This document shows positions 2,655 through 11,586 of a DNA stretch of 11,586 bases, piece after piece. Source of the DNA: Promethearchaeia archaeon (GTDB lineage: Archaea; Asgardarchaeota; Lokiarchaeia; Sigyniarchaeales; SOKP01); contig JAHQWJ010000005.1 of assembly GCA_029856125.1 (NCBI GenBank), positions 1-11,586 on the forward strand, given 5' to 3'. The notes under the pieces were generated by a model. It saw only the letters and a program-made list of their open reading frames with translations, had not been told where the DNA came from and made no database searches. The position numbers were made by a program, and so were the translations under genes. Every line of letters starts with the position of its first letter. Within the stretch, counting starts at the first letter, position 1.

Positions 2655-5003
2655 TTATACATGACATAATCTTTTGAGCAAAGTTGGATCAATTATTTCT
2701 TTTGGTTTCCAACCTTTTTCTTTCAAAAATGCTACAATTTCGTCTTTCATATTAATAGGAATATCCGCTTCTACTCGAATAAATTTCTCTAAATCGTTTG
2801 GAAAGTCTACTCCCTTGTATTTCCGCTCTAAGTCCATCCAATGAGATATTTTAATCATTCTACCTTTTGAATTATCTGCTGGTCTTAAACACATTTTGGC
2901 CACTAAGCATATCGCTTGTTCAATAGATTCAGCTGTCACTAATAAATGTTCTGGTCCTGGTCCAACTACATGGTCAGCAGTTCCATCTCTTGCGTTATAT
3001 ACTTTCCACGAATCTTCGTTGTCAGATCGACCAATATACGCGCGTCGATATTCTGCAGCATGTGGACCCACTACGGCTGGAACGCCTACACTATTTGCCA
3101 TACTGGCTATACTGGCAGCTTTTTGAGACATAGCACCCCACGCAACGCCGACAGCTCCAACTCTATGTAAGATATAATCGGAAATTTCTTCGAAGTTACC
3201 TCGTAACGGACGTCTTGCAAAAATATTTGCTACTTTTATCGCAGCACCAGTAATGTGTGGATTTGAAACGCAAGAACCAACATTTACTAATCCGCCTCTG
3301 TCAAAATCGCCAGGAAATCTATCGTAAAGCGTATTACCATCCTCATCCTTTACTAAACCGATATCCATAGCCCCACAACCGGAAACTACTACAATATAAT
3401 TCCTTATGCAGAATTCTTCGGCAAGTTTATATAGTTCTTGAATATCCTTTCCATAAGCTGCACATCCAATAATCGCTACAATCCCCGGTATTTCTCCTAG
3501 TACGATCGGAGCTCCAACATTTCGAATCTCTGTATCTTGTATAGGTCCTCGTCCTACTCGAACATGAAACTTCTCATTTCTGATTTTATCTCTTCCTGCA
3601 TACATTATAAGCGTTAGGGGAGATACATCTTTCATACAATCGGCTTCACAGCGCCCACAATCTAAACAATCGTCAAAAACACGCTCTAATACTGAAAAAT
3701 CACCTTCTTTCACTAATCGAACTCCCTCAACAAGGGGTAAATCGTTAGGACAATTGCGTTGACAATTACCGCATCCATTACAGTTGTAGGCCATTTGGAT
3801 ACAACCTTCCTCGTCGGGAATAGCGCTTCGAGATTTTCTAATTGGGCGAACTTTAATTGCCGTTTCAACAGCCACCTTTCCTGCCTTTATTGGATCTAAA
3901 ATTAATACTCCCTTCATTTTACCACTAACTAAATCATCTATTATTTCTTCTGCAGGATCGTCTGTTCTATTTGGTAAGCCCCCCATATTTTTTTCGTTAG
4001 TAGCAATAAATGGTGCTCCTACCAGTTGGGCTTGCTCAAAACTTCGAAGATTGACACACTGTTCATCGACCATGACTACATCTGCCAAACCGGAGCGAAT
4101 AAAGTGCATTTGTCTAGACATTGATCCAACGACTTTGGCTCCATCATAATACCTGGTTAAATCTAAGGCAGTACAACAAATTGCTCCTACATCTAGTTTG
4201 TCTCCTAAGTTATGTTCTCGCATATAATCAACAAGTTCTACTCCAGGCGCAACATTATGCCCTATCATTAATATTGTTGCTTTATTTTCAGTGTCCATGG
4301 TTCCCATGCCTAATTCTACTATAGGTACGTCTGCTTCTCCAGCGGGAAATCCATACGCAGCAATTTGAACAGCGTCTGAGATTTCCATACCAACTGAATC
4401 TGCTAAACCAGCTAAAAAGCTCTTAGCTTCGTAATCTAAATGATTTGATTCTTGTCCTGTATGACCAGCAGCAAGCAAATGTGTAATTGTAAAATGCACC
4501 CATTCCATCGCCGTTTCTAAATCTTCAAGAGTTTCAGGCTTCATACCTACAACAAGTCGGGTATGTGGCATTTCTACAGCAATATTATTACCAAAATTTA
4601 TTGGAATATTACCATATTTCTCTTTGAGCCAGTGAAGTAAATGATCTCCGTGCGCAGAATGACATGAAGCGCCTATACAACAAGCGATTTCTACTATCCT
4701 TGCTTGCTGTGTTTCCATGTTAATTCCGCAAGCACCTGTTCTACCCTTCGAAAGATTACACTTCCCATACGTACAAAGGCAACACATGTCGCAAATAGGC
4801 ATGTAGTATGGAGGATATCTATCCATGAGTTTAAAGAACCAGTCTCGTAATGTGGGAATATGAGGTTTTGGGGTTGGTCCCATTGGTTCCCATTCCGTTT
4901 CGTCTCCCCAGCTTACTTTCCCAGTTGTTAATTCAAAGCCTTTAATTGAACCCAAAGGTCCTTTATATTCGTCGATTTTTATTCTTGCTCCTTTTTTACT
5001 CAT
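2655..5003 (-). CDS. cdhA: Acetyl-CoA decarbonylase/synthase (CODH/ACS) alpha subunit, archaeal Ni-CO dehydrogenase
   Basis: N-terminal CDMCCLCTYGKC...GACG (B/D clusters). C-cluster ligand motifs GHN, ICCT, DEQC, IGC, SGC, GSC and WGAMSQK. Two ferredoxin-like motifs, CNGCGNCQRNCP and CLDCGRCEADC, typical of archaeal CdhA. Start placed at ATG 5003 because the track's GTG at 5012 looks like part of an SD-like GTGA 6 nt upstream; 5012 remains possible. Confidence 0.96.
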   Translation of the reverse strand: MSKKGARIKIDEYKGPLGSIKGFELTTGKVSWGDETEWEPMGPTPKPHIPTLRDWFFKLMDRYPPYYMPICDMCCLCTYGKCNLSKGRTGACGINMETQQARIVEIACCIGASCHSAHGDHLLHWLKEKYGNIPINFGNNIAVEMPHTRLVVGMKPETLEDLETAMEWVHFTITHLLAAGHTGQESNHLDYEAKSFLAGLADSVGMEISDAVQIAAYGFPAGEADVPIVELGMGTMDTENKATILMIGHNVAPGVELVDYMREHNLGDKLDVGAICCTALDLTRYYDGAKVVGSMSRQMHFIRSGLADVVMVDEQCVNLRSFEQAQLVGAPFIATNEKNMGGLPNRTDDPAEEIIDDLVSGKMKGVLILDPIKAGKVAVETAIKVRPIRKSRSAIPDEEGCIQMAYNCNGCGNCQRNCPNDLPLVEGVRLVKEGDFSVLERVFDDCLDCGRCEADCMKDVSPLTLIMYAGRDKIRNEKFHVRVGRGPIQDTEIRNVGAPIVLGEIPGIVAIIGCAAYGKDIQELYKLAEEFCIRNYIVVVSGCGAMDIGLVKDEDGNTLYDRFPGDFDRGGLVNVGSCVSNPHITGAAIKVANIFARRPLRGNFEEISDYILHRVGAVGVAWGAMSQKAASIASMANSVGVPAVVGPHAAEYRRAYIGRSDNEDSWKVYNARDGTADHVVGPGPEHLLVTAESIEQAICLVAKMCLRPADNSKGRMIKISHWMDLERKYKGVDFPNDLEKFIRVEADIPINMKDEIVAFLKEKGWKPKEIIDPTLLKRLCHV

Positions 5004-5113
5004 CCATTTCACTTCTTCTTTTATAATATATAGATCTGAATAATGATTCTTTCTTATTAAAGTCTAATTAATCCTTATTTAAATCAATAACAACGCAATT
5101 ATAAGTGTTATAT

Positions 5114-5869
5114 TTAAAAAATTCTAGGAAAAATCTTTCTTGTATTTTCTTCAATTTGTCTTTCTAATTCATCTGAATTAATTTCTTTTAGCGTTGAAAT
5201 AGAATTTAACACGTTTTTAACCATTGCCGGAACGCCTATTCTTCCGGAATATTTCACTGGACCATCGCTTTCCAAAAGAAGGTGTTCTTTATCAACATTT
5301 AAAACGACTTTCTTTACAACTGGCGAATAACTAATTGCTGGTGTAATTGAGAAATAATATCCTCTATCCATACCAAGTTTTAAATAATTCTCAGGTCCTG
5401 AATACCAATGAATGTTGACATTGGGGATTTTATAAGAGGGTAAGGTATCAAAAACTATCTTTTCAGCACCTTTTGTATGGAGATTAACTGGGAGTTCCAA
5501 ATCTTGAGCAAGTGATAGCATTTTATTAAAAATAGTCTTTTGAAGAGGATATAGCTCCTTATCTTTAACGAAGTGATGATCTAGACCAATCTCACCAATA
5601 GCACATATATTTTGTTTATTTTGTTTAATTAAGTCATTTATTGAATCTAGTTGTTGTTCGATTTTCTTGTTCATTGTCACTTCTTCAGGATGGATTCCTA
5701 ACGAAGCATAAATCTCAGAATGTTTATTAGCGATCTCTAAAACTCTCTCTTGGCTTATGGAACTCATTGCTACAGCAATTATTTTCTCAACCCCAACTTC
5801 TTGGGCATTTTTAATAACTTTATCAACAGTTAGATAGAGATTGATATGGCAGTGAACATCAATTAAAAT
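5114..5869 (-). CDS. tatD: TatD-family metal-dependent nuclease/hydrolase (about 251 aa, probable ATT start)
   Basis: Motifs GEIGLD, LHT, IHWYSG and LESDGP. The frame extends 34 codons upstream of the track's ATG (5767) and encodes ILIDVHCH, the N-terminal metal-binding HxH. It is closed by TAA at 5872-5870, with GGTGA at 5880-5876. Confidence 0.92.
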   Translation of the reverse strand: MLIDVHCHINLYLTVDKVIKNAQEVGVEKIIAVAMSSISQERVLEIANKHSEIYASLGIHPEEVTMNKKIEQQLDSINDLIKQNKQNICAIGEIGLDHHFVKDKELYPLQKTIFNKMLSLAQDLELPVNLHTKGAEKIVFDTLPSYKIPNVNIHWYSGPENYLKLGMDRGYYFSITPAISYSPVVKKVVLNVDKEHLLLESDGPVKYSGRIGVPAMVKNVLNSISTLKEINSDELERQIEENTRKIFPRIF

Positions 5870-10524: not shown

Positions 10525-10744
10525 AGTAGAACCACCTAAATGATAATTGAAAATTTTGTTGAACTAATAATAAAAATAATCCATTTTATTCTTTTCGAAA
10601 TCTGTCCAAAATTGCAGCACTTACAAATTCTAATAGATAAAATTATTTATTAAGAACTGCATGAATATCATTGTTGTTGTAATTTAACAATTAGAAAATT
10701 TACCATAAATATAATAACGTAATAAAAAGATTTAGTGAATCAAA

Positions 10745-11586
10745 ATGGGATTAAAATTAGCATCTACGCTAGCAGTAATGTTTCTATTTGCACTAATGTA
10801 TGCCGTTGTTTTTGTTATAGGCGTCTGGTTTTTACCTAGTAATCTTTTGGGACTTCTATTGATGATTGTATTTACTGTTGGGATCGTATTATTACAATAT
10901 GGCATTTCACCATTAATAGTTGGGTGGCTTTATAGAATTGATTGGATCGAATACAAAGAGTATGCCTACCAATACCCTCATTTAGCAGATGCGATAGATA
11001 AGGTCGTAGCAATCAGGGAAATTAAACCCCCAAAACTGGGAATAATTCACGATTTAAACCCTCAAGCTTTTACATTTGGGTGGTCCAAAAATAGCGCAAG
11101 ACTAGTAATCACGGACGGAATCTTACATTACTTAGATGAGAACGAGCAAAGAGCAGTAGTTGCTCATGAGCTAGGTCACATCGTACATAACGATTTCATT
11201 TTAATGACGGTAGTATTTGCAATTCCTTTAATATTGTTAACGGTAGCCAGGTGGTCTTACTATACAGCACGGTTTTCAAGTTTCAGAAGCTCTAAAGATG
11301 ACGACGCAGGAAGTTATATTGGTTTAGCTTTAATTGCTGTAGCTATAGTTTCTTACATATCTTACTACATCGGCTACTTAATATCACTGATCGTGAGTCG
11401 AATTCGCGAATATTTCGCTGATCAACATGCAGCTGAATTAACAGAAAATCCAAATCATTTATCAACAGCGCTTATCAAAATCGCTTACGGTCTGTTAGTA
11501 AGCGGAACTGAAGCAGAGATTAAGCAGAAACAAAAATCTAGTATGAGAGGACTACGAGGTTTAGGGATTTTTGATCCAAAGAAGGC
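10745..11586 (+). CDS. htpX: HtpX-like M48 zinc metalloprotease, membrane-bound (3' end beyond window)
   Basis: Translated by hand: MGLKLASTLAVMFLF...NPQAFTFG...LVITDGIL...AVVAHELGHIVHND (HEXXH at 11165-11179)...SRIREYFADQHAAELTENPNHLSTALIKI. No stop before the window end; GTGA 7 nt upstream of the ATG. Confidence 0.92.
   Translation, partial: MGLKLASTLAVMFLFALMYAVVFVIGVWFLPSNLLGLLLMIVFTVGIVLLQYGISPLIVGWLYRIDWIEYKEYAYQYPHLADAIDKVVAIREIKPPKLGIIHDLNPQAFTFGWSKNSARLVITDGILHYLDENEQRAVVAHELGHIVHNDFILMTVVFAIPLILLTVARWSYYTARFSSFRSSKDDDAGSYIGLALIAVAIVSYISYYIGYLISLIVSRIREYFADQHAAELTENPNHLSTALIKIAYGLLVSGTEAEIKQKQKSSMRGLRGLGIFDPKK

Follow-up and report, generated by a model that had tools for sequence, protein, structure and literature searches.

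The window analysed here, the whole stretch of 11,586 nucleotides (nt) at positions 1 to 11,586 of contig JAHQWJ010000005.1 from a Promethearchaeia archaeon (assembly GCA_029856125.1; 3.69 Mb, 32.7 % GC), carried three genes that appeared to start at ATT or ATA behind a Shine-Dalgarno (SD) sequence with a GGTG core. ATT, ATA and ATC are referred to collectively as ATH (AUH in RNA). All three genes lay on the minus strand. A tatD-family DNase gene (5114-5869, 251 aa) displayed an ATT at 5869-5867, located 7 nt behind GGTG at 5877-5880, with two in-frame TAA codons in between (5875-5870). A gene for a mutY-like HhH-GPD glycosylase (9019-9873, 284 aa) displayed an ATT at 9873-9871, also 7 nt behind its GGTG (9881-9884), the GTG of which was out of frame. 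The third, a hypothetical gene (9889-10524, 211 aa), displayed an ATA at 10524-10522, 8 nt behind GGTG at 10533-10536. The 3' end of the 16S rRNA provided the anti-SD GAUCACCUCCU, for which the ideal SD is AGGAGGUGAUC.

In these frames the earliest canonical codon (ATG, GTG or TTG) was found at residue 35 of tatD (preceded by 34 codons), at residue 49 of the mutY-like gene (a GTG, preceded by 48 codons) and at residue 66 of the hypothetical gene (an ATG, preceded by 65 codons). Inclusion of the extension shifted the beginning of the TIGR00010 match to tatD from model position 43 to position 1, and that of the TIGR01084 match to the mutY-like protein from position 33 to position 2. The DxHxH metal motif of TatD sits within the first 34 codons and could be aligned with the solved structure 2gzx in the PDB. 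Both N-terminal extensions therefore have the sequence hallmarks of real protein, while searches of Pfam and NCBIfam with the 211-aa hypothetical protein returned no match. Three genes with ATG starts served as controls: cdhA (5001-5013, minus strand, ATG at 5003) with AGTGA 6 nt upstream, a membrane-protein gene (7643-7657, minus strand, ATG at 7645) with TGTGA 8 nt upstream, and htpX (10734-10747, plus strand, ATG at 10745) with AGTGA 7 nt upstream. A first-pass annotation of the same DNA had reported these coordinates and spacings, the lack of canonical codons ahead of the conserved N-termini, the family motifs in two of the extensions, and a full GGTG in the three candidates versus (A/T)GTGA in the ATG genes; on recheck, all of these were correct. 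The GTG contained in the SD was in frame in cdhA (at 5012), whereas in the three candidates it was out of frame and ran into a stop within 4-13 codons.

The nearest relatives of tatD were found in metagenome-assembled genomes (MAGs) of Promethearchaeota (Lokiarchaeia), one of which, SOKP01, belongs to the source genus. Among 65 ortholog loci, the start column was occupied by ATG, GTG or TTG in 36 and by ATT, ATA or TTT in 29, and two of these loci (L007 with ATG and L008 with ATT) differed by a single base in the start region. Two orthologs (L027 and L028) had TTT in this column behind GGTG, with both the SD GTG and an upstream TTG in frame, and their start is ambiguous. The 46 distinct orthologs of the mutY-like gene were divided into 23 with a non-canonical start and GGTG, one with a non-canonical start and no GGTG, 19 canonical without GGTG and three canonical with it; five (L045, L046, L084, L087 and L094) displayed ATG at the exact start column. 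Most ATT/ATA orthologs retained GGTG at 7 nt, a spacing which places the SD GTG out of frame. In orthologs of the hypothetical gene, ATA, ATC and ATG alternated behind the same SD, and in two of them (L037 with ATG, L039 with ATC) the SD and spacer were identical to those of the source genome. ATG at the same column was consequently seen for all three genes, sometimes one base apart. Gene trees indicated at least eight changes of start class for the mutY-like gene and at least four for tatD. Of the controls, the membrane-protein gene had ATG in 38 of 39 orthologs and htpX in 11 of 11.

Public gene sets carry short forms of these proteins: 20 contigs have tatD at 217 aa, and the hypothetical protein is listed at 146 aa. 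The first-pass annotation had anticipated such truncation by gene callers. Since these callers pick a downstream codon, and the source MAG displays 6 % contamination, assembly errors, pseudogenes or genuine downstream canonical starts were considered. No indel was encountered across the three starts, and none that would restore a canonical start, in contigs from four public runs representing three distinct data sets (the outcomes for runs X7 and X8 were the same, and the two count as one data set; a relation of one run to the source sample is possible); an assembly error was thereby rejected. Only substitutions were listed nearby: one in the spacer (5872) and two, at 5885 and 10541, ahead of the SDs. 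The same state recurred in dozens of species with intact frames, and a downstream start would delete the metal ligands of TatD, all of ribosomal protein eS27 and 101 of the 139 residues of eS19, which makes this explanation highly improbable.

Genome-wide, a simple stop-to-stop caller gave 3,218 genes, and GGTG sites near their 5' ends without a canonical codon within 12 nt downstream were tested. The in-frame codon 6-8 nt past GGTG was ATH in 78 of 158 cases, versus 53 of 459 at 11-18 nt and 7 of 303 out of frame (p=2.4e-21), which is the enrichment at SD spacing that the first-pass annotation had proposed to look for. The ATH share was 46 % at 6 nt, 55 % at 7 nt and 47 % at 8 nt; it fell to 5-14 % at 9-12 nt and to 1-4 % out of frame. 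The peak of ATG and TTG starts behind GGTG coincided with it, both covering 6-8 nt. The 78 candidates were composed of 44 ATT, 27 ATA and 7 ATC, next to 118 ATG, 49 TTG and 16 GTG starts led by GGTG. Of the genes led by GGUG, roughly 25 % to one third would start at AUH. After background correction some 68 genes of mixed functions remained (2 % of all genes). The true number is probably higher, since the test left out genes that have another SD or a canonical codon upstream by chance, and 68 is a minimum. GTT, GTC and ACG were mildly enriched at the same spacing (p 0.004-0.014, uncorrected).

The excess depended on the type of SD. ATH accounted for ~51 % of cases behind GGTG, 63 % behind AGGTG, 30 % behind GTGAT and 19 % behind GAGG; it was at background level behind GGAG and reached only 1 of 16 behind GGAGG, a small sample (GGTG versus GGAGG, p=4e-4). 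ATG starts were common behind all six variants. It had been suggested that a stronger SD compensates for the poor start codon. The dependence on an SD was borne out; the strength was not, since the effect is tied to GGTG and 118 ATG genes also possess it. What appears to be decisive is whether the half of the SD nearest the start is paired, and not overall strength. In the comparison with a distant congener (G017), 13 of 26 scored ATH starts faced ATG in the same column, versus a rate of 1.5 % for internal Ile codons, and all 13 of these ATG orthologs were without GGTG at that spacing, as were 13 of 17 ATG-to-ATG pairs. Two ATH-to-ATH pairs were also without it; GGTG is strongly favoured for ATH starts but not absolute. 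Pairwise comparison was also made with a very close relative (G007), between which and the source genome non-coding DNA is still conserved.

That GGTG works and GGAGG does not could also be read as a sign that the GTG inside the SD is itself the true start, used in frame in some genes and followed by a shift or hop in others. Of the 29 tatD orthologs whose start column is non-canonical, 26 had this GTG in frame (spacing mostly 6 nt), and it was excluded as a start only in the source genome, L002 and L020; genome-wide it stood in an open frame in 16 of the 78 candidates. In the other 62, which include all three window genes, it either lay in a different frame or was cut off by a stop. The equal excess at 6, 7 and 8 nt would demand three different shifts, ATG and TTG starts occur at the same distances, and ortholog L020 of tatD displays a stop between the GTG and its ATA. 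Frameshifting from the SD GTG was rejected given the stops within 4-13 codons and the differing shifts required, and initiation at this GTG is on the whole very unlikely. Translational coupling was rejected as well: an upstream gene lay no more than 10 nt away from an ATH start more rarely than from an ATG start (4/53 versus 112/407), and the hypothetical gene, being the first after a divergent intergenic region, has no upstream gene to be coupled to. The ATT of the mutY-like gene (9873) lies five codons past the in-frame TAG of the hypothetical gene (9891-9889). These two genes share one frame, parted only by that TAG (9889-9891) and the five codons; read-through is unlikely, and orthologs often display further stops there.

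Residues following the candidate ATH codons (Ser, Lys, Pro, Thr) resembled those following ATG, with a score of +6.7 versus a null of -12.5 +/- 5.2 derived from internal post-Ile residues, and the observed score exceeded all 5000 simulations. The ratio of ATT, ATA and ATC (44:27:7) did not differ from internal Ile codon usage (p=0.12), which is what free drift of the third base would produce. Internal ATH codons faced Ile in 68 % and Met in 1.5 % of ortholog positions (the three codons pooled). The first residue of these proteins would nonetheless be Met and not Ile, if the ribosome initiates at ATH as proposed. Truncation at the first canonical codon would cost a median of 20 aa, and at least 40 aa in 22 of the 78 candidates. 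The 78 candidates included the single-copy ribosomal protein genes eS27, eS19 and uS4. The eS27 gene of the source genome displayed no canonical codon in its entire frame, while most of 30 family orthologs had ATG at or beside that column, one (G036) had ATA, and the gene starts with ATG in other genera of the family. In eS19 the first canonical codon was codon 101 of 139, and the ATC start of uS4 faced ATG in an outer family. Further candidates were UvrB-, RuBisCO- and MvhD-like (named by eye from their N-termini). In two paralog pairs (C147:7533 and 8360; C133:890 and C57:895 of the source genome, G000), both copies had ATT behind GGTG.

Removal of a tRNA-type mini-intron of bulge-helix-bulge (BHB) shape could in principle supply an upstream canonical start. 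The aIF2-gamma gene (C136, ~18998-19027) contained a 29-nt insert that splits the P-loop GHVDHG-KTT, carries an in-frame stop and passes the BHB test, for which previously noted intron boundaries served as positive control; as this gene is single-copy, splicing of its mRNA is implied. At the ATH candidates, start-restoring segments were no more frequent than by chance (8 of 78, versus 62 of 578 random internal Ile codons), none was found at the window genes, and single-base swaps to ATG occurred in otherwise colinear orthologs. Of the explanations considered this was the most improbable.

The trait was strong in the source genus and weaker in other Lokiarchaeia. Three congeners displayed ATH in 39 of 59 cases (14/23, 5/5 and 20/31) versus 22 of 166 in the background. 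The excess was weaker in an outer sample made up of 400-kb portions of three genomes, two from a second family of the order and the third from a different order of the class: 11/37 versus 14/127 (pooled p=0.009; genus versus outer sample, p=7e-4). One genome (G060) was equally AT-rich and had frequent GGTG but little excess, which argues against an artefact of composition or method.

The factors aIF1, aIF1A and the aIF2 subunits were all present in the source genome. A single initiator tRNA gene was found, displaying a CAU anticodon, A1-U72 and three G-C pairs in the anticodon stem, and no second initiator tRNA or Met(CAU) gene was called by ARAGORN. The same program called 17 tRNAs by default and 42 under relaxed settings, many with odd introns or anticodons, which fits the heavily interrupted tRNA genes described in Asgard archaea (bioRxiv 10.64898/2026.10.13.758758). 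The C-terminal residue of uS9 was Arg, and the 16S P-site segments differed from those of outer-family Lokiarchaeia only by stem-level changes and, in the h24 stem, by a swap that is compensated. The first-pass annotation had proposed a look for unusual substitutions in the initiator tRNA and in initiation factors; none was obvious in the initiator tRNA, nor was any lineage-specific one in the 16S P-site segments, the uS9 tail, aIF1A or aIF2-beta. Two aIF1A genes were found in G017 (C37 and C38; L367, L372).

AUH initiation could also have a cause other than relaxed proofreading by aIF1, namely the use of a tRNA-Ile, or an initiator tRNA altered by a C34 modification of the kind found in animal mitochondria. 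In mammalian mitochondria, C34 of the initiator tRNA is formylated. The dominance of ATT, ATA and ATC over other near-cognate codons would fit such a change, and mammalian mitochondria routinely start at codons other than AUG (PMC11775629). The CAU anticodon and canonical identity elements of the sole initiator tRNA gene speak against it, as do the mild enrichment of GTT, GTC and ACG, which fits a general relaxation, and the dependence on GGTG, which suggests ribosome geometry. We consider this cause unlikely, if less so than the explanations rejected above.

In the gene for aIF1 itself (C84:118611-118958, L355), the zinc knuckle was not preceded by any canonical codon, and ATT stood at the conserved N-terminal column. 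ATT occupied this column across the family; a few of the family sequences seen had an SD-embedded GTG or a distant GTG or ATG before the knuckle. Many other Asgard families had ATG, and several had ATA, once CTG (loci L182-L211 and L292-L320, from the source family and others). The aIF1 of the source genome retained the zinc knuckle and the basic loop; its Pfam score was the weakest or near-weakest, and it displayed QGEH in place of QGDH, a substitution not shared by most congeners, which retain QGDH. No aIF1 match was obtained in 8 of 55 family genomes at least 90 % complete (G009, G017, G018, G024, G151, G178, G184 and G191), while the gene was missing in no genome of the other families searched, and some genomes of the source family had two copies. 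G017 was also without matches to 16S and aIF2-beta, which are neighbours of aIF1 in the source genome, and an assembly gap is therefore likely.

Taken together, we estimate at roughly 85 % the probability that about 2 % or more of the genes in this genome start at AUU, AUA or AUC located 6-8 nt behind GGUG, and that they do so via the ordinary initiator Met-tRNA. In the proposed mechanism, GGUG of the mRNA would pair with CACC of the 16S anti-SD and so hold in the P site the codon that follows 6-8 nt later. There the single initiator Met-tRNA would be accepted on AUU, AUA or AUC despite the third-base mismatch; GUU, GUC, ACG and CUG would probably be accepted too, less often. The third base would then drift between AUG and AUH while GGUG stays. 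The genome-wide excess and the ATG swaps in orthologs agree with the suggestion of the first-pass annotation that relaxed start selection may be routine in this lineage.

Several observations weigh against this interpretation. The in-frame SD GTG in most non-canonical tatD orthologs offers these genes a conventional start. Co-change of SD and start within single gene trees was not significant, with two and one concordant pairs and no discordant ones, too few independent pairs. GGTG was not shared in 13 of 17 ATG-to-ATG pairs between the source genome and G017, which indicates a fast turnover there too. No apparent lesion in the initiator tRNA, uS9 or P-site 16S accounts for a relaxation. ATA-start aIF1 genes occurred also in lineages with little genome-wide ATH excess, so that the start of aIF1 alone would not be the cause. 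Finally, the whole case for initiation at ATH is built from DNA.

The likeliest cause, on which the odds seem about evenly balanced, would be a lowered proofreading set-point of aIF1. It is favoured because aIF1 rejects AUU in vitro in Sulfolobus solfataricus (PMC4705826) and because its own gene here appears AUU-started, like infC. Poor starts are the means by which both IF3 and eIF1 control their own synthesis (PMC4705826, PMC6237735), and an infC/eIF1-like autoregulation of aIF1 is possible by analogy. More tentatively, start selection may follow a third-base-blind rule (GGUG, 6-8 nt, AUN) that depends on the GGUG half of the SD and whose level is set by feedback of aIF1 through its own AUU or AUA start. 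Such a rule would extend even to highly expressed ribosomal protein genes, and the AUU or AUA start of aIF1 would be common to several Asgard families.

Other genes of the window fitted canonical starts in their orthologs, namely an N-formylglutamate amidohydrolase-like gene (GTG at 7128), a radical SAM gene (TTG at 7745) and a ThiS/MoaD gene (GTG at 1348). The called GTG start of the first (6334-7128, minus strand) falls inside GAGGTG, and in three of its orthologs this column held CTG, preceded by AAGGA, and no alternative start was visible. Elsewhere in the genome, a gene on C24 with counterparts in G017 and G007 displayed ATG-GAT-TGA ahead of a conserved frame (SCKLG...); G007 had a comparable case preceding a CGG motif. 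Both look like selenocysteine read-through of TGA. Selenocysteine insertion at TGA is known for Lokiarchaeota.

The closest known parallel is bacterial infC, which, in line with the ATT, ATC and ATA initiators of NCBI table 11, displays an SD-led AUH start presumably served by the normal initiator tRNA, as would be the case here. As in the infC type, there was no in-frame canonical codon between the upstream stop and the conserved N-terminus, and there were an SD complementary to the organism's own 16S, an ATG-like spacing and a canonical start in orthologs. The parallel extends to the gene of the fidelity factor itself, here aIF1, which appears to be AUU-started (PMC4705826). In bacteria, however, AUH starts are confined to a handful of regulated genes, whereas here they would concern at least ~2 % of the genome and are not confined to autoregulated genes; unlike in infC, AUH also swaps freely with ATG between species, and this in an archaeon with aIF1 and aIF2. 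Non-canonical starts in Deinococcus (dnaA ATC, rpsL CTG, infC; Baudet 2009, PMC2830850) likewise affect essential genes including a ribosomal protein gene, but concern four genes detected by proteomics in a bacterium, versus ~70 genes deduced here from genomes. Ribosome profiling of Haloferax volcanii placed ~30 % of putative alternative initiation sites at near-cognate codons (Gelsinger 2020, PMC7261190), which suggests that an archaeal ribosome can start there. Those sites were alternative ones, set aside by the authors as possible false positives; here the ATH codon is SD-dependent and would be the only available start. Mammalian mitochondria use AUA and AUU starts. They resemble the present case in their routine, third-base-relaxed initiation (PMC11775629), but differ by leaderless mRNAs, bacterial-type factors and AUA coding for Met, whereas here the starts need GGTG and internal ATH aligns with Ile.

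Reviews permit AUG, GUG and UUG starts in archaea, and a literature search that left most subscription papers outside its reach found none that describes AUH starts for Asgard archaea. SD sequences have been stated to be rare in Lokiarchaea (PMC12993045, PMC7531240). That statement rests on the annotated starts of one cultured species; the source genus displayed a clear SD signal, part of which is hidden behind misplaced starts. Gene callers truncate the proteins concerned or would miss them altogether, as for eS27, and protein catalogues, domain calls and marker sets of Asgard archaea are affected. Stringency of start-codon selection is a main difference between archaea and eukaryotes, and the present Asgard lineage indicates that a genome-wide relaxation may be possible; in this lineage, the parts played by SD pairing and aIF1 in setting stringency could be tested in a natural setting. 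Feedback of aIF1 on its own start, if true, would mean that the archaea most closely related to eukaryotes have an equivalent of the autoregulation known for infC and eIF1.

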